Origin: Methanobacteriota archaeon
Lineage (GTDB): Archaea; Methanobacteriota_B; Thermococci; Methanofastidiosales; Methanofastidiosaceae
DNA: 41,900 nucleotides
Direction: 5' to 3'
Assembly: GCA_023622545.1 (NCBI GenBank)
Contig: JAMNZA010000140.1
Span: forward strand, 1 to 41,900
Under the pieces are notes generated by a model. That model was not told where the DNA came from. It did no database searches and worked only from the letters and a program-made list of their open reading frames with translations. Numbering within the stretch: position 1 is the first letter of the stretch; each line of letters opens with the position of its first letter. Positions 8,589 through 26,056 of this stretch are shown in pieces. The position numbers and the translations under genes are program-made.

Positions 8589-9707
8589 ATGGTCTATATT
8601 ATAAAAAAAAGAATTGGGGAGGAACTTTATTACTATCTCAATCATTCAGTTAGGGTTGATGATAAAGTAAAAACTCTTTCTTATTATCTAGGTAAAGGGC
8701 CCTTTTCTCAGTCTGAAATAGAATCTTTGGTAAAAGAAAAGTCTCAAATGATACTTCTCGAGGCAGAATTCTTTAAGGTATTTTCTAAAAGGTCGGATTA
8801 TAAGGAGCATCATCTTCCCAGTTCATTCATCAACATCCTTGAGCGATTAAAAGAGATCAATAGAATAATGGCACCATTTAACAAAAGCTACTTTGAGAAG
8901 TTTGAAGAAAATCTTCAACTGAGGTATGTCCATGGGTCAACAGCAATAGAAGGAAATACCATGTCATTGAGGGATGCGCAGCTTATCTTAGAAGAGGACA
9001 CACCGGCAGGCAACACTCTGAGAGAAATGCATGAGGTACTAAATTACAAGGAACTTTTCAAATTTATACGGTCTTACAGAGGGGATATCAATCTAAAGTT
9101 TATCTTGAAGATCCATGAGCTCCTAATGAAGAATATCGATGATGAAAATGCCGGCACCCTAAGGAATATTGACATTTCTATATCTGGAACTGATTATGAC
9201 CCAACACCTTTTCCATTGCTTGAGGATGAGATCAATAATATGGTCGATTGGTACAACGAGAAGAAAACACAGATGTTTCCAATTGAACTTGCATCCAACA
9301 TTCATCAAAAATTTGTTGAAATACATCCATTTATCGATGGCAATGGCAGGGTATCAAGGGAGCTACTTAATTTTATTTTGATAAAGAATAACTTTCCTCG
9401 TCTTGTGATACCTTTTGATAGAAGGGGGGTATACCTCAGGTGCATAGATATAGGAAATTCTGGGGATATAGTTCCTTTTATAATTTTTATCTCCGGCCTT
9501 TTAATTGAAGATTCGTTTAAACCTGTAGATATATTCTTTGAGCAGTTAAAGGCAAAACTAATCAATGAACATTATTCCTCTGAGATTTCAAAGGAATTAG
9601 ATAATACGATGAGTGATTACAAAGAGATACTATCGATAATAAAAGGGATGGAAGGGCAAATAGAAAATCTAAATATTAATGAACTAAGAAAAGGAAAATG
9701 GAAATAA
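8589..9707 (+). CDS. Fic-domain protein (probable AMPylase) with an intramolecular inhibitory motif
   Basis: Canonical Fic active-site motif HPFIDGNGRVSR (9324-9359). An upstream STAIEG (8937-8954) fits the [ST]xxxE[GN] inhibitory-helix motif. Confidence 0.9.
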   Translation: MVYIIKKRIGEELYYYLNHSVRVDDKVKTLSYYLGKGPFSQSEIESLVKEKSQMILLEAEFFKVFSKRSDYKEHHLPSSFINILERLKEINRIMAPFNKSYFEKFEENLQLRYVHGSTAIEGNTMSLRDAQLILEEDTPAGNTLREMHEVLNYKELFKFIRSYRGDINLKFILKIHELLMKNIDDENAGTLRNIDISISGTDYDPTPFPLLEDEINNMVDWYNEKKTQMFPIELASNIHQKFVEIHPFIDGNGRVSRELLNFILIKNNFPRLVIPFDRRGVYLRCIDIGNSGDIVPFIIFISGLLIEDSFKPVDIFFEQLKAKLINEHYSSEISKELDNTMSDYKEILSIIKGMEGQIENLNINELRKGKWK

Positions 9708-9752
9708 CATAATAAACAAAATACTTAAATAGTTTTGATATCAATAAATTTC

Positions 9753-11243
9753 ATGAAAAAAATTGCATTTTTTCTGACAATAATGTTGTTGAACATATCT
9801 ATATTGAGTGTTTTTGCCGATGAGCTTTCTTGGAGCTATGAAACGGGTGATGATATTGCTTCAGTTGTTGCATCTTCGGATGGCGCATATATTGCAGCAG
9901 GCTCTTATGATAATTATGTTTATTTCTTTAATAGAAACGGAACACAGCTATGGAAGTTCCAAACTGGAAGTAACGTTGAATCTGTATCTATAAATTCAAA
10001 TGGTCAGTATGTTGCCGCTGGCTCTTGGGATAAAAGAGTTTATCTGCTTGACAGATCTGGACAGAAAATATGGGACAAGGAAGTATCTGACCAAGTTTTC
10101 AAAGTGAATATTTCTCCAGATGGGGCATACATAACTGCAATAACAAAGGATAAAAGTGTTTTTGTTTTCAATAGAACTGGAAATTTATTAAGTTCATATG
10201 ATTCAAGGGATAGGTTATCTACTTCCTCAGTATCTCCTGATGGAGGGTCTATCGTTGTAGGTACAAACGACAGTAACGTTTTTTTCCTCTCTAGTTCTGG
10301 AGCTAGAGCTTGGGAATACAAAGTCGGAGGAAATGTACAATCAATTTCTAACACTCCTGATATGAACACAATAGTTTGTGGATCCCTTGATGGTAAAGTT
10401 TATTCATTTGATAATAAAGGTGTATTAGATTGGTCTAAACCTTTAGGTGGAGGATCCCAATTAGTTTCAGTTAATGCAGCGGGAAACAGAATATTTGCAG
10501 CAGATCTTGGTAGCAATGTCTATCTATTCGATTCTACAGGAAAGCAGTTATTAAAAAGAAAACTAAAGGACAAGGCCAATGCCGTTTCAATGACTACAAA
10601 CGGAGACTACGTTGCCATAAGCTCATTAGATAGGGCTGTAAGTTTAATTGATAGTTCAGGTAATTTGTTGTGGAGCAATGAATACGACAATACTGCAAAT
10701 TCAGTCTTTTTGACAACAGATAGAAAACTTATAGTTGGTTCTAAGGATAACAAAGTATACCTTTACGACTTAGGATCATATATGCAATCAAAACCACAGA
10801 CACAAACACCCCCTACAACAACCCCAGAAACACCTGGACCATCAGAAGTAACCCCGCCCCAAGTAACACCTCAAGAGGATACCACTCCTTCACAAACTAC
10901 ACCTGTGAGCGAGCCAACTTCAACTACAGGCGGAGGATTTCCAATCATATATCTAATACCAGTTGCAGTTATAGTCATAGCTGCGTTAGCATTTGTCTTT
11001 ATGAAAAAAGGTAAAACAACAACTACTGAACCGAAAGTAACAAAAGAAACCAAAGTCAAAGAAGCTAAAATAAAAGATGAATTAAAATGTCCGTTTTGCG
11101 GATCGCCTATTGAAAAGGGAATTAAATTCTGTGGCAGCTGTGGAAATACTCTAACAGAAAATGTTGAAATCAAATGCCCTGACTGCGGTGCGACAATCGG
11201 AAAAGACGGAAAGTTCTGTCCTGAGTGTGGTAAAAAAATATAA
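9753..11243 (+). CDS. surface-exposed PQQ/WD40-like beta-propeller protein with a Thr/Pro stalk, one TM helix and a cytoplasmic double zinc ribbon
   Basis: ATG at 9753 (the ORF track starts at TTG 9735) gives signal-peptide-like MKKIAFFLTIMLLNISILSVFA. Eight ~40-aa repeats of the form S.DG.Y[IV]AAGS.D..VY.F...G..LW follow. Then TPPTTTPETPGPSEVTPPQVTP, TM FPIIYLIPVAVIVIAALAFVF, and finally CPFCGS..KFCGSCG and CPDCGA..KFCPECG. Confidence 0.8.
   Translation: MKKIAFFLTIMLLNISILSVFADELSWSYETGDDIASVVASSDGAYIAAGSYDNYVYFFNRNGTQLWKFQTGSNVESVSINSNGQYVAAGSWDKRVYLLDRSGQKIWDKEVSDQVFKVNISPDGAYITAITKDKSVFVFNRTGNLLSSYDSRDRLSTSSVSPDGGSIVVGTNDSNVFFLSSSGARAWEYKVGGNVQSISNTPDMNTIVCGSLDGKVYSFDNKGVLDWSKPLGGGSQLVSVNAAGNRIFAADLGSNVYLFDSTGKQLLKRKLKDKANAVSMTTNGDYVAISSLDRAVSLIDSSGNLLWSNEYDNTANSVFLTTDRKLIVGSKDNKVYLYDLGSYMQSKPQTQTPPTTTPETPGPSEVTPPQVTPQEDTTPSQTTPVSEPTSTTGGGFPIIYLIPVAVIVIAALAFVFMKKGKTTTTEPKVTKETKVKEAKIKDELKCPFCGSPIEKGIKFCGSCGNTLTENVEIKCPDCGATIGKDGKFCPECGKKI
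9826..10775 (+). repeat. eight degenerate tandem coding repeats of about 120 bp (propeller blades) inside the gene at 9753-11243
   Basis: Repeats are visible at protein level (blade consensus above). DNA identity between units is low. Boundaries are approximate. Confidence 0.6.
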
Positions 11244-16480: not shown

Positions 16481-16537
16481 TAAAAAATTTCCGAAAGATT
16501 TAAATATTTTAAAGAATTTATAAAAATAGTGATAATA

Positions 16538-17008
16538 ATGAAAATGAACAAAAAAGGTATTAAAATTCTAAAATCTCTCCTTGCAATTAGAGGATTCCCA
16601 CAGAAAAACAAGATTGCAGAAGAAACTGGGCTTTCAATACAGACTGTTACACCATTCATCAATAAGATGATTGACGACGGTATCATAAAAGGATTCTCAG
16701 CAATAATTGAGCCCGATAAATTAGGATATCACCAAGTTCATTTTCTCTTGAATATCCAAAAGGGTACGAATCAAGAAGCGATTGATTTCTTAAAGAATAT
16801 GGATAGAGTCTTATATGTGACTTCAGGATTTGGAAATTTTGACTGTCAGTTAGTAGTTGCTATCCCAGCTGATAGGACAGATCTTATACCTGGGTATATG
16901 GAGTCCATGAGGCAATCGGGGATATTTAAGAGTGAAATGAGTATACATGTTGTCACTAAGAGTCATTTTCCCTTACCAGATTTCCTTAGAAATGAAGACT
17001 TAAGTTAA
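16538..17008 (+). CDS. Lrp/AsnC-family transcriptional regulator (HTH plus RAM domain)
   Basis: The ORF track starts at GTG 16529; ATG codons lie at 16538 and 16544. The N-terminal winged HTH (KILKSLLAIRGFPQKNKIAEETGLSIQTVTPFINKMIDDGIIKGF) is followed by a RAM-type beta-alpha-beta domain. Confidence 0.85.
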   Translation: MKMNKKGIKILKSLLAIRGFPQKNKIAEETGLSIQTVTPFINKMIDDGIIKGFSAIIEPDKLGYHQVHFLLNIQKGTNQEAIDFLKNMDRVLYVTSGFGNFDCQLVVAIPADRTDLIPGYMESMRQSGIFKSEMSIHVVTKSHFPLPDFLRNEDLS

Positions 17009-17018
17009 CGGTGCAAAG

Positions 17019-18704
17019 ATGCAAAAAAAATTAGCTTTATTTTTAACATTAATTTTTATTTTTGCCAACTTCAGTCAGATAATGTCTGAAGACACAATTA
17101 GATGGCGATACCACACCGCAGATGATGTCAGGGCGGCTTCTTTGGGGGATGTCAATGGCGATGGTAAATTTGACGTTGTTTTAGGCTCGGGAAACTATGT
17201 CTATGCTCTTGATAGTTTTGGGCAAGAGATATGGAAAAAGAAAGCTATTAATTATATTAATACAGTGTCTACTAATGACCTTGATGGCGATGGCAGAAGC
17301 GATGTCGCTGTGGGGCTTATAAACAATGGAATTGAAGTTTTTAATTCAGATGGAGAAAAATTATGGGAATACTGGATGCCCTCTTCCATTCAGAAGGTCA
17401 TTATAAAAGATATTGATTCAGATGGGTATGGAGAAGTAATAGCCATCTCCTATAACACCTCTTTGAACGATAATGCATGGGTAATACTAAATCATGATGG
17501 ATGCGTTAGGTTCCAAAGTAAGGATTTCTTTTTCCCCGATATTGAATTAAAAGGTTATTATGATGGTACAGATAAAAAATGGGAAGCTGACGACGAACTC
17601 AGAACTATCCTTGCCGAGGATATTAATGGGGATGGAAATACCGAATTTGTTGCAACTACAAGGGCAAATGACATCTTAATTTTCGATTATAATATGAACT
17701 CTTTATGGGGATACCATTTTGATTATCCTATAACTTCTGTTTCTCTTGGGGACTTAGAGGGAGACGGTTTTAAAGAGATTCTTCTCGGAGTAAACAAAAA
17801 ATTGATCATCCTTACAAAAGATGCATTTTCTTTGAAAGAATACAAATTTGACGATGACATCGGTGCAGCGGCCGCTTTCAAAGATTCAAATATCTCTTAT
17901 GTTTTGATAGCTAAAGGAAACAATTTATACGTATATGACTATGGAACAGAATTATTTAATTATAGTTTTGATGATAGTATTAATCTAATTTATTCAGATG
18001 ATTTAGATTATAAAAATAGTATAGAGATAATAACTGGTACAGACGATGGGGCATATGTTCTAAATCTTAAAGGAAAGAAACTCTTTACATACAAGACTTA
18101 CTCTCCTGTGAATGAAGTTTTTATAACAAACCTCGATTTCAAATCTCAAAAAGAATTAATCTTATCTTCTACAGATGTGGACGTAATCACATACCAGGAA
18201 TTAAAAGATATTGAGTTGCCGGTCTCCCAAACAAATCAACAAGAGAGGCAAGCAACAATAAACAGAGCAAACGCAATCTTTAGCACTGGAAAAGCGTTAT
18301 ATGGGGTTAGAGATTACCAGTCAGCTTTAGATAAATTCAAAGAAGCAAGAACAATATACGAATCTGTATCTTATACTGAAGGCATCAATAACTGTGGAAC
18401 ATTTATATCAAATTCTACAGTATACATACAAGCTAAAACATTTGAAGATCAAGGATTATCTTTAAAGAATGAGAAAAAATATGAAGAAGCAAAATCTAAT
18501 TATCAGACAGCTAAAGACATTTACTCTTCATTGAATGACTCTACAAAGATCCAGGAAATGGATCAAGCAATTGCAGAAGTCGATGACTTAATTAGAACTG
18601 AAGCTTTAATTAGAACATTAGTATACATAATTATTATTGGTGCTATCGTAGCAATTGTAGTATTTGTATTTTTATTCCTCAGAAGAAAAAATAAAACTAA
18701 ATAG
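17019..18704 (+). CDS. FG-GAP/VCBS-repeat beta-propeller surface protein with a TPR-like segment and a C-terminal TM anchor
   Basis: Signal-like MQKKLALFLTLIFIFANFSQIMS. Repeated Ca-binding-type loops: DVNGDGKFDVV, DLDGDGRSDVAV, DIDSDGYGEVIA, DINGDGNTEFVA, DLEGDGFKEILL. A helical Y/A-rich repeat follows (ALYGVRDYQSALDKFKEARTIY.., KYEEAKSNYQTAKDIY). C-terminal TM LVYIIIIGAIVAIVVFVFLFL plus RRKNKTK. Confidence 0.8.
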   Translation: MQKKLALFLTLIFIFANFSQIMSEDTIRWRYHTADDVRAASLGDVNGDGKFDVVLGSGNYVYALDSFGQEIWKKKAINYINTVSTNDLDGDGRSDVAVGLINNGIEVFNSDGEKLWEYWMPSSIQKVIIKDIDSDGYGEVIAISYNTSLNDNAWVILNHDGCVRFQSKDFFFPDIELKGYYDGTDKKWEADDELRTILAEDINGDGNTEFVATTRANDILIFDYNMNSLWGYHFDYPITSVSLGDLEGDGFKEILLGVNKKLIILTKDAFSLKEYKFDDDIGAAAAFKDSNISYVLIAKGNNLYVYDYGTELFNYSFDDSINLIYSDDLDYKNSIEIITGTDDGAYVLNLKGKKLFTYKTYSPVNEVFITNLDFKSQKELILSSTDVDVITYQELKDIELPVSQTNQQERQATINRANAIFSTGKALYGVRDYQSALDKFKEARTIYESVSYTEGINNCGTFISNSTVYIQAKTFEDQGLSLKNEKKYEEAKSNYQTAKDIYSSLNDSTKIQEMDQAIAEVDDLIRTEALIRTLVYIIIIGAIVAIVVFVFLFLRRKNKTK

Positions 18705-19067
18705 GTGAATTATTTGATTCGAGAAGAAATTAAAAAAAGGGTTGAAAAATTACAAACAATAGCAATAAATTTTGAAAACGAAGGGTATTTTCAAGATGCT
18801 GCAGATAGTTATGTTGAGGCTGCTAATTTTCTGATTGACGAAAAGGATTTCTTCTGGGGTGCTGAAGATTTTAAAAAAGCTGCCGAGTTGTACTGGGATT
18901 CTGGGGATAAAGGAAGAGCTGAAACTCTCTTCAACACTGCAATAAACTATTATTTAATGGATGCAGATTACTACCTAAAACGTGATGGCTATTTTTGGGC
19001 TGTTAGAGACTATAAGCTAGCGGTTCAATGTTATGAAAAATGGCTCAGTATGATCGGAAGGATTTAA
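18705..19067 (+). CDS. small all-helical repeat protein (TPR/SNAP-like), function unknown
   Basis: GTG directly abuts the upstream TAG. The repeated pattern F.DAADSY.EAANF / EDFKKAAELY / GRAETLFNTAINYY / RDYKLAVQCY suggests paired-helix repeats. There is no signal peptide or TM. Confidence 0.55.
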   Translation: MNYLIREEIKKRVEKLQTIAINFENEGYFQDAADSYVEAANFLIDEKDFFWGAEDFKKAAELYWDSGDKGRAETLFNTAINYYLMDADYYLKRDGYFWAVRDYKLAVQCYEKWLSMIGRI

Positions 19068-19077
19068 ACAAAACCAG

Positions 19078-19151
19078 TGGGCCCGGGGGGATTTGAACCC
19101 CTGACCGCCCGGTTATGAGCCGGGCGCTCTACCAGTCTAAGCTACAGGCCC
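19078..19151 (-). tRNA. tRNA with anticodon CAT (elongator Met type; could equally be tRNA-Ile2 before C34 modification)
   Basis: The reverse complement folds as GGGCCTG-TA-GCTT-AGACTGGTA-GAGC-G-CCCGG-CTCATAA-CCGGG-CGGTC-AGGGG-TTCAAAT-CCCCC-CGGGCCC-A. It is not initiator-like: there is no A1:U72 and no G29-31:C39-41. Confidence 0.9.
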
Positions 19152-19157
19152 AAGAAG

Positions 19158-19230
19158 CGCCGCCAGCAGGACTCGAACCTGCGACCATTCGATTAACAGT
19201 CGAGCGCTCTACCTACTGAGCTATGGCGGC
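19158..19230 (-). tRNA. tRNA-Asn (anticodon GTT)
   Basis: The reverse complement folds as GCCGCCA-TA-GCTC-AGTAGGTA-GAGC-G-CTCGA-CTGTTAA-TCGAA-TGGTC-GCAGG-TTCGAGT-CCTGC-TGGCGGC-G. It is 73 nt and lies 6 nt from the neighbouring tRNA. Confidence 0.93.
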
Positions 19231-19293
19231 ATGAAGATTCCGATTTCAGAATCCTATATAAAACTTTCTATTAATAAAATTATCAATATCATG

Positions 19294-20211
19294 TTAAAAT
19301 ATATCCATTAGATATACAAGTGGAATTAATGTAAACCACATTATATACGCTAGAGAGAATTGAAGCTGCATATTAATCTGGCCTTCAATACTATCCGATC
19401 TAAATAGGACACTTAATAAGTATAGTAGGATTATCCCTTGAGCTATAGCAACAATGAACAACATTCCAAGAGATCCTAGAATCCCTAAAATAACTATTAT
19501 TATGCTTGAGATAATAGAAAGAGAGATGGAAATAATTGATAAGATAGTTGCCCTTTTTTTACCTAATATTACAGTAAGTGTTCTTTTACCTACTTTTTGA
19601 TCTGCCGATAAATCTGGAAAACCTGCAAGAATTATAGCCCCAAACACTGAAAAGAAAAGTGGTATAGAAATTAACCAAGGAAAAGTCAAATCAATTCTTT
19701 GAGATTGTAATAAGAATCCAGCAATAACTATGTAGAAACTATGTGTTACTCCTACGTCTAATTCCCCTAAACCTCTGTAAGATAATTTAATTGGGGGTAG
19801 AGTATAGGACAATCCTAGGATTAATCCAATTAAGAGGACGATAAAAGAGTAAATATTTGTCATGTAAGTGAGAATAATTCCCAAGATAAATACCATTACA
19901 AGACCAAATATCGTGGCTTTTTGTACGTCATTTAGTAAAATCTTCCCTTCAACTAACATCCTAGAGCCACCAGTAAATTGGCTATAGTTTCTGTTTATAC
20001 TATCCGTTTCATAATCGAAGTATTCATTAGAAATGACCGTTACGAATTCTATGAAGAACATAGCTAGATAACCAAGTAGATACACCGTTAGATCAAATTT
20101 AGCTAATATCTTCAATGAAGACATAGCTCCTACGGTATATGCTAAGAAGGTCATAGGGTAAAATTGAAGTCTTATTATCTTTAACCACGAAATGATCTTT
20201 TCTTTATTCAT
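19294..20211 (-). CDS. UbiA-superfamily aromatic/polyprenyl prenyltransferase, MenA-like
   Basis: ATG at 20211 (the track starts at TTG 20220). First Asp-rich motif NEYFDYETD, second DLSADQKVGKRTLTV (cf. D..xD...GK.TL of MenA/UbiA). Eight to nine TM helices. Confidence 0.85.
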   Translation of the reverse strand: MNKEKIISWLKIIRLQFYPMTFLAYTVGAMSSLKILAKFDLTVYLLGYLAMFFIEFVTVISNEYFDYETDSINRNYSQFTGGSRMLVEGKILLNDVQKATIFGLVMVFILGIILTYMTNIYSFIVLLIGLILGLSYTLPPIKLSYRGLGELDVGVTHSFYIVIAGFLLQSQRIDLTFPWLISIPLFFSVFGAIILAGFPDLSADQKVGKRTLTVILGKKRATILSIISISLSIISSIIIVILGILGSLGMLFIVAIAQGIILLYLLSVLFRSDSIEGQINMQLQFSLAYIMWFTLIPLVYLMDIF

Positions 20212-20339
20212 AATGAACAATATTTTTCATGAAATAATCTCAATATAAATATTTCTAATAAATCTAATTTACCGATAATTTTTTATAGATAGTTAGTTCA
20301 TTTTTCACAAGTTCTATTAAAAAAATTGCTGGTGATTTC

Positions 20340-21626
20340 ATGTTTGATACAGGACTAATAGAAAAACTAGTTTCTTCTGAAAACTATTACAAAAAGAGAG
20401 AGGAAGTAGAAAAACTACGCCATAAAGCAATAAAAATGTCGCATAAATACCATTTTGAAAATAATAGATTTTATCATGACTATTGCAAATTAAAAGGGTT
20501 AAATGGAGATATTAAACCCAAGGATTTTCATAAAATAGTAATCCCTGACGGTGTATTCAAATCCTATGAGATGGAGTGTCCTGAGAAGAATCCACAAGAA
20601 TTTAAGAAATGGGTCGAAAGGATATCTTCTGTTCCGATAGATTTTACACCTAAAGGTATGGGATCACTTGAAAGTTTTCTTGAAGAGTTTTATTCTAATG
20701 GGCTCATGCTAGGGTTTAGCAGTGGAACCTCAGGAAAACTAACATTCCTACCGCGAGATGAATTTACCAGATCAATGATAGTTAAATCTTATACCGAAGC
20801 TATCGATGCGACTCTTAAACTAAATAAGGGGCAGGAGAAATTTATCCTAGGCATTCCTAAGAAGACTTTCTTGCAAGTTGGGTATAATGGTAGGGTAGTT
20901 GCAGAGAACATATCTCCTGGAAATGTATTCCACGCCATTGATAGCCTTAAGGCGGATATTATAAGATTAAGAATGAGAGGACCAAGGTCATCAAAGGAAA
21001 AAATAATGAACTATTTCATAAAAAAAATGCTACCAAGAATTGAGAAAAATTCGATAAAAGGCATCGTATCAAATCTAGAAGCTAATCGTGGAAAAAGAGT
21101 AGTATTTATGGGGCCACCTTTCTTAATAATTAATACTGCAAAGTATGTCCTAGAACATGGGATTGATGCAAAAATAGGAGAAGATAGTTTCTTTGCTTCT
21201 ACTGGGGGATTTAAAGGGAGATCTATTGTCAGTAGGGACAAAATGAATGATTTGATTCAAGAGGCATTTGGGCTGGATCCAAAGAGATACATCGATCTAT
21301 ACGGTATGACCGAATCAAACTCTATAATGGTAGATTGTTTAGAGGGTAATAACAAACATATACCACCTTGGATGGAAGTTATACTTTTCGATGAGCATAT
21401 GGAGCCAATACCTCCTGAAGGGAAAGTCACTGGTAATTATGCATTCCTTGAACCTTCTTCTAAATCATTTCCTGGATTTATTACAACTGGTGACAAAATA
21501 AAAGTTGACTACGATGGATGTCCAGCTTGCGATAAGAAAACACCAATTCTCCTTAGCATTGAAAGACTTCCAAGACTAGAAAGCAGAGGTTGCTCTGGTG
21601 TACTTGCTAAAACGGTGGCTGATTAA
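20340..21626 (+). CDS. LuxE-like acyl-protein synthetase (adenylate-forming, PaaK/LuxE clade)
   Basis: GGTGA sits upstream of the ATG. P-loop-like GFSSGTSGKLTFLPRD (cf. SSGTTG of ANL/PaaK/LuxE enzymes) and DLYGMTESNS (cf. YG.TE). One Cys lies in RGCSGVLAKTVAD, 10 residues before the C-terminus, where LuxE carries its acyl-accepting Cys (from memory). Confidence 0.78.
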   Translation: MFDTGLIEKLVSSENYYKKREEVEKLRHKAIKMSHKYHFENNRFYHDYCKLKGLNGDIKPKDFHKIVIPDGVFKSYEMECPEKNPQEFKKWVERISSVPIDFTPKGMGSLESFLEEFYSNGLMLGFSSGTSGKLTFLPRDEFTRSMIVKSYTEAIDATLKLNKGQEKFILGIPKKTFLQVGYNGRVVAENISPGNVFHAIDSLKADIIRLRMRGPRSSKEKIMNYFIKKMLPRIEKNSIKGIVSNLEANRGKRVVFMGPPFLIINTAKYVLEHGIDAKIGEDSFFASTGGFKGRSIVSRDKMNDLIQEAFGLDPKRYIDLYGMTESNSIMVDCLEGNNKHIPPWMEVILFDEHMEPIPPEGKVTGNYAFLEPSSKSFPGFITTGDKIKVDYDGCPACDKKTPILLSIERLPRLESRGCSGVLAKTVAD

Positions 21627-23192
21627 TTGTCAAAATTAAAAGGGTACTACCTTCCTAAATCTCTAAAATCCTTGGAAAAAGAAATGGAGTTTACAGAGAA
21701 GAAAGTAAATAATAAAACAATACTAACTCCAAATATAAATTCTCAAAACATAGCTAACATTGTAACAGAACTAAAAGAAAACAGAAAAAAATACCTTTCA
21801 GAAATGCCATTGACAGAAATAGCTTTAGCTTACGGAAATGTATCCAGAAAATGGGCAGATAACAAATATGAAAAAAAGAAACTTGCTCTTGAATTGTTGC
21901 CATTACTAACAAATCTTTCCTCTGAATTAATAGAATTTTACCAATTCAGATCAATTTACAAAATTGATGAAAAGACCATTAATTTTTTGTCTACCCTTAA
22001 TTTACCGCCAGAAGTTTTTAAGCAATTTACGCCAATTGAAGGGGCAAATACCTATGTTAGAGCATATGCTGGATTTAGAGACAAGCTATCGCTAAAGAAT
22101 ATTTCACAAAATGATAAGGAATTGGAGTTAGTAACATATATCACCCCTTCAAATGTCCCGGGATTTATAGAAAGCCTTGGAATATTCATTGCGTCTATAG
22201 TAAAAGCTGCTGGATTAATCAAAACACCTTCAGTTCAGCCTCTTTTTGCACCATTATTTGCGGAATCTGTTGCAGAGCAAAATAAAGAGATTGGAGAGAC
22301 TATAGCTGTAATACCTTGGGCAGGGGGGGATGAATCAATTGAGGACATCATCTTCAGAAACTCAAATGTAGTCAGTGTAGTTTCTAGCACCCAAACTGCG
22401 ATGTCCGTAAAAAACAGAATCGACAAATTGAACAGAGGGGGAAATTCAATAAAAGGATGTTATCATGGGGGTAAATTTGGGATTGAACTTATTGGAAGGG
22501 AAATGGCTACAAAGGATGTAGCCGGACTTGCAGCCCTCGATGGAATTGGATATGAGGGGTATATGTGTGGGTCTCCTGCCTTTGGATTTTTTGTAGAAGA
22601 GGATGGAGAACTCAGTCCAATTGAATTTGCAGAAGCACTTGCCGGTGAAATGGAAAAACTTTCTAAATCAATACCTCAAACTAATTTTTTCAGAAAATTA
22701 AGGGATGTTAAAATTGGAGAAATAATATCTAGGCCTGAATTTGAAGGCGGTCAAAAAATTTATACTTCATCTAAAAATAATTTTGCCGTAATTTTCGAAT
22801 CGAAATTTAATCTTAACCCAATTGGGCAAAACAGATTAATCAGAGTCTTTGGGGTAAAAAGCTTAGAGGAAGTAATAGATAAAATGAAGCCCTGGAAAGA
22901 GTACCTCCAAACTGCAGGAGTTGCATTGGGAAACGACAGAATTCAGAAAATTGCAGAATTAATGGGAAAAACTGGATTTTCAAATATTAGGGTTGCAGGC
23001 ACTGTGGCATTACCCAGACTTGGCGAAGCTTGGGATGGGAACTATCCAATATATGAATTTTATATACCTGATAGTATTCAGTGGACCTCAATAAACGCAG
23101 TTGATTTTGAAAATGAGATTAAAGAACTGATAAAAATCAAGAATCAAGTTATTACTAAAGGAGTATTCAATCCTAACCTCCAAATTCGTTAG
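21627..23192 (+). CDS. LuxC-like acyl-CoA (acyl-protein) reductase, aldehyde-dehydrogenase superfamily
   Basis: TTG abuts the LuxE-like TAA (21624-21626); an alternative ATG lies at 21684. The segment ITPSNVPGFIESLGIFIASIVKAAGLIKTPSVQPLFAPLFAES ... VIPWAGGDESIED ... GYEGYMCGSPAFGFF is collinear with my recollection of Vibrio LuxC (AGNVPLSG..IIKTSS.DPF.A.AL ... VIYWPHQGD ... YDQRACFS). It includes a candidate catalytic Cys. Confidence 0.78.
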   Translation: MSKLKGYYLPKSLKSLEKEMEFTEKKVNNKTILTPNINSQNIANIVTELKENRKKYLSEMPLTEIALAYGNVSRKWADNKYEKKKLALELLPLLTNLSSELIEFYQFRSIYKIDEKTINFLSTLNLPPEVFKQFTPIEGANTYVRAYAGFRDKLSLKNISQNDKELELVTYITPSNVPGFIESLGIFIASIVKAAGLIKTPSVQPLFAPLFAESVAEQNKEIGETIAVIPWAGGDESIEDIIFRNSNVVSVVSSTQTAMSVKNRIDKLNRGGNSIKGCYHGGKFGIELIGREMATKDVAGLAALDGIGYEGYMCGSPAFGFFVEEDGELSPIEFAEALAGEMEKLSKSIPQTNFFRKLRDVKIGEIISRPEFEGGQKIYTSSKNNFAVIFESKFNLNPIGQNRLIRVFGVKSLEEVIDKMKPWKEYLQTAGVALGNDRIQKIAELMGKTGFSNIRVAGTVALPRLGEAWDGNYPIYEFYIPDSIQWTSINAVDFENEIKELIKIKNQVITKGVFNPNLQIR

Positions 23193-23286: not shown

Positions 23287-23520
23287 ATGGTATACGCATA
23301 TGTTTTAATAACAGTTTCTATTGGTAAAATTAAAGAAGTTATTGAAGCCGTAAAGAAAATTGATGGTGTAATAGAAGCCGATGTTATCACCGGTCCATAC
23401 GATGCAATTGCAAAAATAAAAGCAAATGATCTAGGAGAACTTACAAAGACAGTTATCCAGCAGATTCACTACATCGAAGGTGTAATTGATACAACAACTG
23501 CCATAGTAATATCTGTCTAA
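23287..23520 (+). CDS. stand-alone Lrp/AsnC ligand-binding (RAM) domain protein
   Basis: At 77 aa, MVYAYVLITV...GKIKEVIEAVKKIDGVIEADVITGPYDAIAKIKANDLGEL...IEGVIDTTTAIV is the beta-alpha-beta-beta-alpha-beta RAM pattern without an HTH. GGTG lies upstream. Confidence 0.75.
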   Translation: MVYAYVLITVSIGKIKEVIEAVKKIDGVIEADVITGPYDAIAKIKANDLGELTKTVIQQIHYIEGVIDTTTAIVISV

Positions 23521-23545
23521 TCCTTAGTTTTTACTCGGTGGTCCT

Positions 23546-24259
23546 TTGAATAAAGTTACGGCTATCTGTGATGTATCCCTATTCGTGTCAAAAAGTAAAT
23601 ACGCGCAAGCTGAATCATTGATGAAATCGCTTCACATTGAAGAAGTTATAATGCCAGAAGAACTAGTCGATATACTAATGAAAGTTCACAGAGGGGAACA
23701 ATTACTTGGGGAACAAGTTAGGGTACTATCTTATTGGGCAAAAGGACCAGTTCCAAAAGATGAAGATATAAGGACTTTCTATGAAACACTCATTGACAAA
23801 GGAATCAAGATCAAAACAGTCAAAGAGTACGTACTTAAAAAAGAAGTAGAACTAGGGTACACAAAACTTAGAGAAGGAATGGAAAAGGACGAAATGGAAG
23901 CATATAATAAAAGCTGGAGAAACTTATATAACAAATTCTCTGAGACGATGCCTGAACAAACAGCAATAATTTGTTCAAAGATATTGTCCCTGTCTTTAGT
24001 ATTTAATGAAAAAATAGTAGCAGTAAACAGGAAACTTCTGAGGTTTTTGTATGATTCCGGATTTGAGGTGTCCAAGGTCACGTCAAATATAGATATAGAT
24101 AATGATGTTGTAGAACACAATATAATATTCTTGAATGTTTATGGATCAAAAACGTTTGAGCCCCTGTTTTATGAAATAAAAAATTCAATAAAAGAGAGCA
24201 CTGCCATTGAAGTAGACTTGGAAAAGAATGTTGGTTCAATAGTAATGTTTAATTTATAA
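23546..24259 (+). CDS. hypothetical cytoplasmic protein (237 aa)
   Basis: Long ORF with a TTG start 25 nt after the RAM gene. Codon usage matches its neighbours. No motif recognised; the start codon is uncertain. Confidence 0.5.
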   Translation: MNKVTAICDVSLFVSKSKYAQAESLMKSLHIEEVIMPEELVDILMKVHRGEQLLGEQVRVLSYWAKGPVPKDEDIRTFYETLIDKGIKIKTVKEYVLKKEVELGYTKLREGMEKDEMEAYNKSWRNLYNKFSETMPEQTAIICSKILSLSLVFNEKIVAVNRKLLRFLYDSGFEVSKVTSNIDIDNDVVEHNIIFLNVYGSKTFEPLFYEIKNSIKESTAIEVDLEKNVGSIVMFNL

Positions 24260-24385: not shown

Positions 24386-26056
24386 ATGGCAGAAATTAGA
24401 CAACCAATGAGTGTCCAACCCGAGGGCGCTCAGAGATTTATGGGCAGAGATGCTCAAAGAATGAATATTCTAGCTGGAAGAATTGTAGCAGAAACAGTAA
24501 AGACGACACTAGGTCCAAGAGGTATGGACAAGATGCTCGTTGACTCACTCGGAGATGTAGTCATCACAAACGATGGTGCCACAATCCTTAGTGAAATGGA
24601 CATTGCTCACCCAGCAGCAAAAATGATTGTAGAAGTAGCCAAGACACAGGATGAAGAAGTTGGAGACGGTACAACAACAGCTGTTGTTATCGCTGGAGAA
24701 CTTCTAAAGAAGGCCGAAGACCTTCTAGATCAAGATGTACATGCAACAGTAGTTGCATCTGGTTACAAGATCGCAGCTGAAAAAGCTGAAGAAATATTGA
24801 AAGATATAGGAGATAAAATTACTATTAATGACGATGAAGTCCTTCTTGAAATCGCAAAGACTGCAATGACAGGAAAGGGTGCAGAAAAAGCAAAGGATAC
24901 ACTAGCACCATTGGCCCTTAATGCAGTAAAGCAAGTCGCAGTAAAAGAAAACGGAAAATACACCGTTGAAACTGAAGACATAAAGGTTGAGAAGAAAGAA
25001 GGTGGAAGCGTAGAAGATTCAAAACTCATCCAGGGATTAATTATTGACAAGGAAAGAGTACACGACGGTATGCCAAAGAAAATAAAGGACGCAAAAATCG
25101 CTTTACTCGATTGTGCACTTGAAGTAAAAGAAACAGAAACAGACGCAGAGATTAGAATTACTTCCCCAGACCAGCTTCAGGCATTTTTGGACCAAGAAGA
25201 AGCAATGCTAAAGAAGATGGTAGACCAGATAAAGGCATCTGGAGCAACAGTTGTATTTTGTCAGAAAGGAATCGATGACTTAGCACAGCACTACCTTGCA
25301 AAGAACGGTATTTACGCAGCAAGAAGAGTCAAAAAGAGTGACATGAAGAAACTAGCTAAAGCAACAGGCGCAAGAGTTGTAAACAAAGTATCTGACCTTG
25401 AAGGAAAGGATTTAGGTAACGCAGGCTCTGTCGAAGAGAAGAAGATAGGCGGAGACGAAATGACCTTTGTTGAAGGATGCAAGGATCCAAAATCAGTAAG
25501 CTTATTACTTAGAGGAGGAACAGAACACTTCCTAGAGGAAGTTGAGAGAGCACTTGAAGATGCAATAGGAGTTATCTCAACTGCAATCGAAGATGGAACA
25601 ATCTGTGCCGGTGGAGGAGCAGCTGAAATGGAATTGTGCAAGAGACTCAACGAATATGCAGAAAAGATTAGCGGCAGAGAACAGCTTGCAGTTAAAGCAT
25701 TCGCACAGGCAATGGAAATCATCCCAAGAACATTAGCAGAAAATGCAGGTATGGATCCAATCGATACCATAGTTGCACTCAAAGCATCACACGAGACCAA
25801 AGACCACAAGAGATTCGGAATCGATATCTTTGACGGAAAGGTTAAAGATATGATGAAGGCCGGAGTTGTTGAACCACTAAGAATTAAAGAACAGGCAGTA
25901 AAGAGTGCATCTGAATCCGCCATAATGATCCTAAGAATCGACGACGTTATCGCTGCAAGTGGAATCGGAAAGAGAAAAGGCATGGGCGGCGACGATGACG
26001 ATATGGGAATGGGCGGCATGGGCGGAATGCCCGGTGGAATGCCTGGAATGATGTAA
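24386..26056 (+). CDS. ths: thermosome subunit (group II chaperonin)
   Basis: Hallmarks [38 protein letters not shown] and VEPLRIK, plus the Gly-Met tail [16 protein letters not shown]. Visibly higher G+C and biased codon usage than its neighbours. Confidence 0.97.

Follow-up and report, generated by a model that had tools for sequence, protein, structure and literature searches.

Introduction

The closest characterised counterpart of the system considered here is the fatty acid reductase of Photobacterium phosphoreum (PDB 7xc6), a complex of LuxE and LuxC for which myristic acid (C14) is the precedent substrate (PMC9157457). As described in the cryo-electron microscopy study of this complex, LuxE has lost the C-terminal subdomain of the ANL superfamily, has its catalytic lysine, Lys238, within an internal loop (GGGWK) together with a hinge residue, Arg355, and bears the acyl-carrying Cys364 in a flexible C-terminal motif, TRxxKGCxLS; the catalytic cysteine of LuxC is Cys296 in the numbering of that paper (PMC9157457). 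Among non-luminous LuxC and LuxE homologues, the best documented occur in flagellin glycosylation islands, in the company of acyl carrier protein (ACP), coenzyme A (CoA) ligase and FabG/FabZ genes (PMC4875605). Here we describe a LuxE-like and a LuxC-like gene that lie side by side in a 41.9-kb stretch of the chromosome of Candidatus Methanofastidiosum (the window; the name is that borne by LuxC homologues with 83-99% identity to the window protein), and which probably specify, under translational coupling, the two subunits of a carboxylic-acid reductase of LuxE/LuxC type that depends upon ATP and NAD(P)H but not upon CoA. Automatic annotation of these proteins as LuxE and LuxC, and the existence of non-luminous LuxC/LuxE homologues in bacteria, are already known; new are the recognition of a discrete archaeal LuxE/LuxC clade that spans methanogen-related and Asgard lineages, the finding at many loci of an operon with a short-chain dehydrogenase/reductase (SDR) gene, and the explicit rejection of an association with a neighbouring prenyltransferase.

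The archaeal pair has in common with the P. phosphoreum enzyme both subunit families and a tight linkage of the two genes. The LuxE-like protein likewise has no ANL C-terminal subdomain, and possesses a lysine in a GGxxK loop, a hinge arginine and a cysteine within a tail of ~20 residues, while the LuxC-like protein has an aldehyde dehydrogenase (ALDH) fold with a candidate catalytic cysteine and, as judged by the Aldedh model, no signature of the ALDH Glu/Asn triad. There are, however, clear differences: the archaeal host is anaerobic, its locus has no luxA, luxB, luxD or luminescence context, and its genes abut in the order E then C, whereas lux operons are arranged C...E with D, A and B between. 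At the protein level LuxC is only ~16% identical and LuxE can be aligned in partial stretches only; the archaeal LuxE-like protein exceeds LuxE by ~55 residues (additional sequence lies within residues 82-247), and its clade has further cysteines (C333, invariant; C394, in 22/24), while the LuxC-like protein is ~40 residues longer and has Trp in place of LuxC H442.

Comparison with other systems is similarly mixed. The LuxE and LuxC homologues of the glycosylation-island type resemble the archaeal pair in their non-bioluminescent use and in the adjacency of LuxE, then LuxC (as at the metagenomic locus L021/L022; labels of this form denote the loci compared in this work), but the bacterial clusters include ACP, AMP-ligase, methyltransferase, FabA/FabG and phosphopantetheinyl transferase genes, none of which is present at the archaeal loci, and their LuxE/LuxC homologues are shorter (~382, 420-435 aa) and distant from the archaeal clade. 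Carboxylic acid reductases (CARs, of adenylation-peptidyl carrier protein-reductase organisation) and fatty acyl-CoA/ACP reductase-SDR routes also combine activation by ATP, an enzyme-bound thioester and an NAD(P)H-dependent reduction that yields an aldehyde and, optionally, an alcohol, and the Asgard-type LuxE-LuxC-SDR operon parallels this logic; their carrier and reductase families are nevertheless unrelated to archaeal LuxE/LuxC, in which the carrier would be a cysteine side chain of the adenylating subunit rather than phosphopantetheine, and the reductase is of ALDH rather than SDR type. With PaaK and F390 synthetase, finally, the LuxE-like protein shares an N-terminal ANL fold, a P-loop and a YGxTE motif, but it differs from both in having no C-terminal subdomain and no match to a PaaK or AMP-binding profile, and instead the LuxE lysine loop and cysteine tail.

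The LuxE-like protein

An initial annotation, made from the DNA sequence alone, had proposed that the window encodes a LuxE-/LuxC-type pair for carboxylate activation and reduction, transcribed divergently from a MenA/UbiA-like prenyltransferase. All three open reading frames (ORFs) were recovered at precisely the coordinates then given (Table 1), as were the SSGTSG, YGMTE and GYMCGS motifs and both Asp-rich motifs, and the proposal of a LuxE-/LuxC-type pair in an archaeon is borne out by the profile matches, residue alignments and LuxC fold described in this and the following section. Pfam returned UbiA (93 bits, E = 2e-26), LuxE (70 bits, E = 2e-19) and LuxC (144 bits, E = 9e-42) for the respective proteins; these matches are far above chance level, and no competing Pfam family was found at E ≤ 0.1 for any of the three.

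For the LuxE-like protein the Pfam score compares with a cutoff of 24.9 bits, and LuxE was the sole match at E ≤ 0.1. In NCBIfam, too, only the LuxE model matches, with 81 bits against an equivalog cutoff of 550 bits, a shortfall so large that the protein is not to be regarded as an orthologue of the LuxE of lux operons. No PaaK or AMP-binding model in either collection matched at E ≤ 0.1, and the contest with PaaK/F390-synthetase profiles suggested in the initial annotation was thus decided in favour of LuxE. A sequence search of the PDB yielded a single match, the LuxE chain (7xc6_E, E = 1e-22) of the Photobacterium complex, and in this alignment K292, R409 and C418 fall upon LuxE K238, R355 and C364, so that the cysteine proposed earlier as catalytic does coincide with that of LuxE. 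All three residues are invariant in the archaeal homologues compared (24/24).

The C-terminus is equally characteristic. The chain terminates 19 residues past R409, and the ANL C-terminal subdomain is accordingly absent; in the tail (...RLESRGCSGVL) R416, G417 and C418 are invariant in 24/24 homologues and the motif RGC(S/A)G is kept throughout. An AlphaFold2 (AF2) model of the protein has a predicted local distance difference test score (pLDDT) of 88, with residues 413-428 of the tail disordered (pLDDT <50). The 'lone' cysteine noted previously 10 residues from the C-terminus is correctly placed, although it is the sole cysteine of the tail only, since C49, C80, C333, C394 and C397 are also present. 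On sequence grounds the protein is a true, if divergent, member of the LuxE family (PF04443), and identity as a PaaK or F390 synthetase is ruled out by the Pfam and NCBIfam profiles and by the LuxE-specific architecture of lysine loop, cysteine tail and missing C-terminal subdomain.

Beyond the residues shared with LuxE, the archaeal clade conserves a set of its own, in which C333 and C394 are joined by H340 (invariant) and by C397 (16/24, in a DGCxxC motif); the pairwise alignment places no cysteine of P. phosphoreum LuxE opposite the extra cysteine positions. These residues might constitute a candidate metal or redox site.

The LuxC-like protein

The match of the LuxC-like protein to the Pfam LuxC model (PF05893, cd07080) exceeds a cutoff of 21 bits several-fold, and the Pfam Aldedh model gave no match at E ≤ 0.1. 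A single-sequence phmmer search of the PDB returned no matches, a measure of the protein's divergence; a profile built from 26 clade members, in contrast to the single sequence, found LuxC (7xc6_A, E = 6e-11) and nothing else. In the profile alignment C314, Q428 and D470 correspond to LuxC C296, Q402 and D443, with C314 opposite the cysteine of YDQQACFS, and the candidate catalytic cysteine of the initial annotation therefore aligns with that of LuxC; the LuxC cleft-exit residues W111 and F483 fall beyond the aligned regions. Cys314 is kept in 25 of the 26 clade members, the exception being P0036, which has serine.

The structural comparison points in the same direction. The best PDB match of the AF2 model (pLDDT 90) in Foldseek is 7xc6_A (E = 2.9e-19, TMq 0.67), below which rank ~700 ALDH structures with E-values of ~1e-14 or weaker and template-modelling (TM) scores of 0.52-0.60. 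Where the initial annotation had set LuxC against generic ALDH models, it is therefore the LuxC model that matches, the Aldedh model that does not, and LuxC to which the fold is nearest. Judged by its sequence, the protein is a true, divergent member of the LuxC family and not an ordinary aldehyde dehydrogenase, an identity ruled out by Pfam, by the clade profile against the PDB and by Foldseek.

The serine-bearing P0036 lies in a Methanocella-type subgroup of LuxC-like proteins of 504-505 aa. The sole examined locus of this subgroup (L005:8001-9518) has no adjacent LuxE gene and is adjoined by an ISL3 transposase gene.

Gene coupling and distribution

At the junction of the two genes (...GCT GAT TAA TTG TCA AAA...) the TAA stop of the LuxE-like frame is followed without spacer by the TTG start of the LuxC-like frame, as had been noted at the outset. 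The TTG start is credible because the Methanocella orthologue begins at the equivalent position, with an ATG that overlaps the LuxE stop (TAATG), and because a GGTGG Shine-Dalgarno-like motif stands ~8 nt 5' of the LuxC-like start both in the window and in Methanocella. Elsewhere (L023, L024, L025, L032 and L041) the LuxE and LuxC genes abut or overlap by 1-4 nt. This layout indicates translational coupling of the two genes, and the abutting or overlapping frames suggest that a stoichiometric LuxE:LuxC complex is to be predicted.

To describe the distribution of the pair, 42 loci were collected and their ORFs compared, and 16 non-redundant lineage groups were examined for adjacency of the two genes. 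Pattern scans of genomes and metagenomes contributed 12 and 15 loci, respectively, these numbers being small because the patterns were strict. Among 5.8 billion proteins the LuxC-like clade comprises 49 clusters at 90% identity, and a word-indexed search with the clade profile found the same 49 proteins again; named members are all archaeal (Methanofastidiosa, Methanocella, Njord-, Heimdall- and 'Asgardarchaeia'). An exhaustive profile search placed the clade within a continuum of 1483 LuxC relatives with steadily declining scores, of which ~7 representatives at 50% identity are close to the window protein; the next named relatives outward, a Thermoprotei-labelled metagenome-assembled genome (MAG) and Aenigmarchaeota, are archaeal too, and more distant LuxE-LuxC pairs are found in the Thermoprotei-labelled MAG and an Aenigmarchaeota MAG. 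LuxE-then-LuxC adjacency is kept in 13 of the 16 lineage groups, mostly with abutting or overlapping genes. The pair is thus an autonomous module in several archaeal lineages, and its proteins form a small, discrete clade that appears, by its residues, to be catalytically intact.

Neither luxA nor luxB nor luxD occurs beside the pair in the window or at any related archaeal locus, in agreement with the absence reported initially for the window; a 143-aa fragment of the Bac_luciferase family was seen in L005, ~2.4 kb away from the LuxC gene (which there has no LuxE), and does not amount to a luxAB pair. The recurrent third gene at other LuxE-LuxC loci encodes an extended SDR of ~331 aa with intact TGxTGFIG and YxxxK motifs, the NCBIfam matches of which are HpnA-, OleD- and SdmB-like. 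It stands directly 3' of LuxC in five locus groups (L002/L018/L035, L039, L019/L036, L038 and L032) and 5-6 kb upstream in L006/L033, and it is not found at the Methanocella locus. The copy in L041/L042 is degenerate, being split over two frames and devoid of the NAD-binding N-terminus, and is probably a pseudogene. The usual position of the SDR gene, directly 3' of LuxC, suggests a LuxE-LuxC-SDR operon that would take an acid to an aldehyde and then to an alcohol.

Proposed reaction and substrate

What has been observed is the correspondence of residues, the fold and the coupling of the genes; the pair conserves every residue recognised as necessary for adenylation and for an acyl relay between two cysteines. 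By analogy with the characterised Photobacterium enzyme, from which the acid-to-aldehyde chemistry is inferred, the LuxE-like subunit would adenylate a free carboxylic acid by means of the SSGTSG P-loop, the Lys292 loop and Arg409, and the acyl group would then be moved onto Cys418 in the flexible tail of ~20 residues. The tail could swing into the LuxC-like subunit and pass the acyl group to Cys314, after which reduction of the Cys314 thioester by NAD(P)H would release a free aldehyde. At many Asgard-type loci the HpnA/OleD-like SDR would reduce the aldehyde further, probably to the alcohol.

With regard to the substrate, a long-chain lipophilic acid, fatty or isoprenoid-derived, is quite possible and our best candidate, although we make this assignment only tentatively. 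Apart from the precedent of myristic acid, hints of lipophilic chemistry come from the OleD/HpnA/SdmB-like matches of the SDR, a patatin-like gene flanking the LuxC gene of L020, the UbiA gene beside the window pair, fatty-acid CoA-ligase family and DAGK-domain genes in L024, and a GGR-family gene in L006/L033. Were the substrate a fatty or isoprenoid acid, the module would bear on the handling of acyl lipids by archaea; were it a small metabolite, the module would be one more specialised reductase. The clade offers a concrete and cheap target for biochemistry. A still bolder proposal, that LuxE-LuxC(-SDR) is a dedicated route by which free long-chain fatty or isoprenoid acids become aldehydes or alcohols for membrane lipids or prenylated compounds, appears unlikely to us at present; if true, products might include lipids of alkyl-ether or wax type in Asgard archaea and a UbiA-made prenylated product in Methanofastidiosum, amounting to a previously unrecognised archaeal acyl-lipid branch with a bearing on the 'lipid divide'.

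Several observations weigh against a relay-type reductase acting upon lipophilic acids. The profile match of the LuxC-like protein to 7xc6_A is modest (45 bits), its identity to characterised LuxC is as low as stated above, and the chemistry assigned to the archaeal proteins rests on their likeness to the characterised bacterial enzyme; literature searches on archaeal LuxC/LuxE found nothing relevant. LuxC occurs without LuxE in three of the 16 lineage groups (L005, L016 and L020), and in the paralogue P0036 serine replaces the catalytic cysteine (GNEGHTSASP), which suggests changed or lost activity; given these LuxE-less groups and the serine paralogue, not all members of the clade can use a LuxE-LuxC relay. 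No SDR of the associated type is encoded in the 41.9-kb window. The hints of a lipophilic substrate are weak, single-lineage and post hoc, and we know of no requirement for fatty aldehydes in archaea. Finally, Foldseek placed PaaK1, BT_0428 and ClxA at the head of the matches of the LuxE-like model (E ~1e-11, TM ~0.6), with 7xc6_E outside the first 50. The deposited LuxE chain is fragmentary, the word 'fragmentary' being used for the LuxE part of 7xc6 by its authors, whose structural reference for LuxE was PaaK1 (PMC9157457); we treat the ranking as a likely reflection of the common ANL fold and of this incomplete chain, and hence as uninformative rather than contrary.

Alternative explanations

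The UbiA-family gene that diverges from the pair invites the proposal that the LuxE/LuxC product serves the prenyltransferase, or the same prenylated lipid or cofactor, in a single three-gene pathway. Membership of the UbiA superfamily is clear from the Pfam match and from two Asp-rich motifs, N65xxxD69xxxD73 and D203xxxD207, although no curated NCBIfam subfamily cutoff is reached (PRK12884, 90 against 269 bits; MenA, ~80 against 277; DGGGPS, 51 against 296). MenA models outscore those for DGGGP synthase, and the second Asp-rich motif (DLSADQKVGKRTL) we take to be MenA-like, which would suit prenylation of an aromatic acceptor better than a part in making core lipids; the best PDB match is, for its part, MjDGGGPS (6m31, E = 3e-11), and a methanogen of the Methanofastidiosum group would not be expected to make menaquinone. 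The proposal gains further from the divergent region common to the UbiA and LuxE-like genes, from the preservation of the UbiA-LuxE-LuxC arrangement in at least 10 Methanofastidiosum loci, and from isoprenoid-lipid genes within ~6 kb of LuxCE in L006/L033 (GGR-family) and L024 (another UbiA). The UbiA of L024, which lies 6 kb away from the distant LuxE-LuxC pair there, was rejected as an orthologue of the window protein (BLASTP E = 0.009). More tellingly, a UbiA orthologue stands beside LuxE solely in this one genus, where all flanking genes are syntenic as well, so that adjacency carries no functional signal; it is absent at the loci of other lineages (L001, L002, L004, L006, L019, L023, L025, L032, L033, L036 and L041). 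Within the genus LuxE (81-88% identity) and LuxC (80-84%) have both changed more slowly than UbiA (58-70%), and in one Methanofastidiosum locus, L011, the UbiA gene has been deleted with LuxE and LuxC left intact at 85% and 84% identity: the region corresponding to window positions 19077-20339 (L011:8252-8666) contains the tRNA-Met/tRNA-Asn pair and, directly upstream of LuxE, a relic of the 27 C-terminal residues of UbiA, itself a weak match (48% identity, E = 0.15). A conserved LuxE-LuxC-UbiA trio is therefore rejected over the 42 loci, and neither the functional trio envisaged in the initial annotation nor the conservation of the adjacency across relatives, which essentially fails outside Methanofastidiosum, was upheld. 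We regard a three-gene pathway as improbable and the prenyltransferase as most likely a lineage-specific neighbour, neither a pathway partner nor an obligate part.

Two further readings leave the prenyltransferase aside, and concern the fate of the product and the enzymology of the pair. That an acyl-derived aldehyde made by LuxE/LuxC modifies a sugar, such as a nonulosonic acid, or else a glycoprotein of the cell surface would accord with the bacterial precedent in flagellin glycosylation islands (PMC4875605) and with the metagenomic L021/L022, where PP-binding, AMP-binding, LuxE, LuxC, methyltransferase and FabA genes stand together; WbuX-like amidotransferase and sugar-formyltransferase-like genes in the distant archaeal L024, the membership of the SDR in the sugar-epimerase/dehydratase superfamily, and O-antigen-polymerase-like and FG-GAP surface proteins encoded upstream (in the window or in L008 homologues) could be read in the same sense. 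The archaeal core-clade loci, however, have no ACP, glycosyltransferase or nucleotide-sugar genes beside the pair, the archaeal clade stands sharply apart from the bacterial type (~31-33% identity over ~31-39% of LuxE), and the best scores of the SDR are to the lipid-associated models HpnA, OleD and SdmB, such that we judge a glycan role to be about as improbable as the three-gene pathway. Slightly less probable still is that the two proteins are independent CoA-dependent enzymes, a PaaK-like acyl-CoA ligase and an acyl-CoA reductase or ALDH, with no relay between cysteines. The Foldseek ranking headed by PaaK1 is what such a ligase would give, LuxC-like genes without LuxE do exist (L005, L016 and L020), 'acyl-CoA reductase' is the source name of LuxC-like proteins, and LuxC itself may also take acyl-CoA, the authors of the P. 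phosphoreum study giving acyl-CoA, in brackets, as an alternative to acyl-LuxE (PMC9157457). Set against this, the LuxE-like protein has no C-terminal subdomain with the PaaK catalytic lysine but the LuxE-specific lysine loop and cysteine tail instead, with Cys418 invariant and no PaaK or AMP-binding match at E ≤ 0.1; the Aldedh model does not match the second protein, and the abutting or overlapping genes point to a stoichiometric complex. The coupled, CoA-independent LuxE/LuxC-type reductase thus remains the reading that we prefer.

Other features of the window and of the compared loci

The coordinates of the features discussed above are collected in Table 1.

Table 1. Positions of genes, motifs and residues in the window, and of SDR genes at the loci compared
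Feature	Position	Strand	Remarks
tRNA-Met and tRNA-Asn genes	19077-19230	-	directly 3' of UbiA gene
UbiA-family gene	19294-20220	-	308 aa; Pfam UbiA
Divergent A+T-rich intergenic region, UbiA/LuxE-like	20221-20339	.	119 bp
LuxE-like acyl-protein synthetase gene	20340-21626	+	428 aa; Pfam LuxE
P-loop SSGTSG, LuxE-like protein	20718-20735	+	residues 127-132
Catalytic-loop Lys292 (GGFKGR), LuxE-like protein	21213-21215	+	aligns with LuxE K238
YGMTE, LuxE-like protein	21300-21314	+	residues 321-325
Arg409, LuxE-like protein	21564-21566	+	aligns with LuxE R355
Cys418, putative acyl carrier, LuxE-like protein	21591-21593	+	aligns with LuxE C364
LuxE stop/LuxC start junction	21610-21632	+	TAA TTG, no spacer
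LuxC-like acyl-protein thioester reductase gene	21627-23192	+	521 aa; Pfam LuxC, ALDH superfamily
Putative catalytic Cys314 (GYMCGS), LuxC-like protein	22566-22568	+	aligns with LuxC C296
SDR gene	L002:9556-10551
SDR gene	L032:3467-4486
SDR gene	L036:3535-4536
SDR gene	L038:1161-2168
SDR gene	L039:732-1724
SDR gene	L006:1990-2985
SDR gene	L033:646-1719

The window is an ordinary segment of archaeal chromosome, with genes for a thermosome (24386-26056), TiaS, ArgG/ArgH and tRNAs. The divergent region between the UbiA and LuxE-like genes is present as noted initially, its length being one base pair less than the 120 bp then given, and the true start of the UbiA gene is probably the ATG at 20211. 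By eye, a TATA-like element for the LuxE direction is seen at ~20284-20293 (TTTTTATAGA) and another, on the minus strand and in the UbiA direction, at ~20243-20250 (TTTATATT); we infer only that these may be putative promoters of the LuxE-like and UbiA genes.

Downstream of LuxC (23287-24259) lie a 77-aa ORF and a gene for a 237-aa protein without a match in Pfam or NCBIfam. Related loci have, as the counterpart of the 77-aa ORF, a protein made up of an AsnC_trans_reg (Lrp/AsnC ligand-binding) domain standing alone, and the 237-aa protein has 87-92% identity among Methanofastidiosum genomes, above that of LuxC. On the other side, the run 16529-19067 is syntenic across Methanofastidiosum and comprises genes for a winged-helix regulator, a 561-aa FG-GAP/BBS2-like beta-propeller with TPR, in which a C-terminal hydrophobic stretch is probably a transmembrane helix, and a 120-aa TPR protein, the start of which directly follows the preceding stop. 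Further away (8589-11243), a Fic/DOC-domain protein of 372 aa is followed by a 502-aa WD40/PQQ-type beta-propeller with a C-terminal double zinc ribbon.

Among the more distant loci, the LuxE-LuxC pair of the Aenigmarchaeota MAG (L025:1-6951) is situated between two FIST-domain genes and has after it another LuxE-like gene, a weak one, with a faint GHMP_kinases_C match; the arrangement is an unusual one. In L024 a cluster convergent with the distant LuxE-LuxC pair (L024:9539-17506) contains fatty-acid CoA-ligase family, WbuX-like amidotransferase, formyltransferase, PEP-synthase/PigC-like, PRK13592-like UbiA and DAGK-domain genes, with a B12-radical-SAM gene upstream, and its gene content resembles that of a cluster for the modification of lipids or glycolipids. 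In a Promethearchaeati MAG (L020:6100-12959) the LuxE-less LuxC-like gene is preceded by M14 carboxypeptidase, DUF6320 and weak alcohol-acetyltransferase (AATase) domain genes, and is followed by the patatin-like phospholipase gene.

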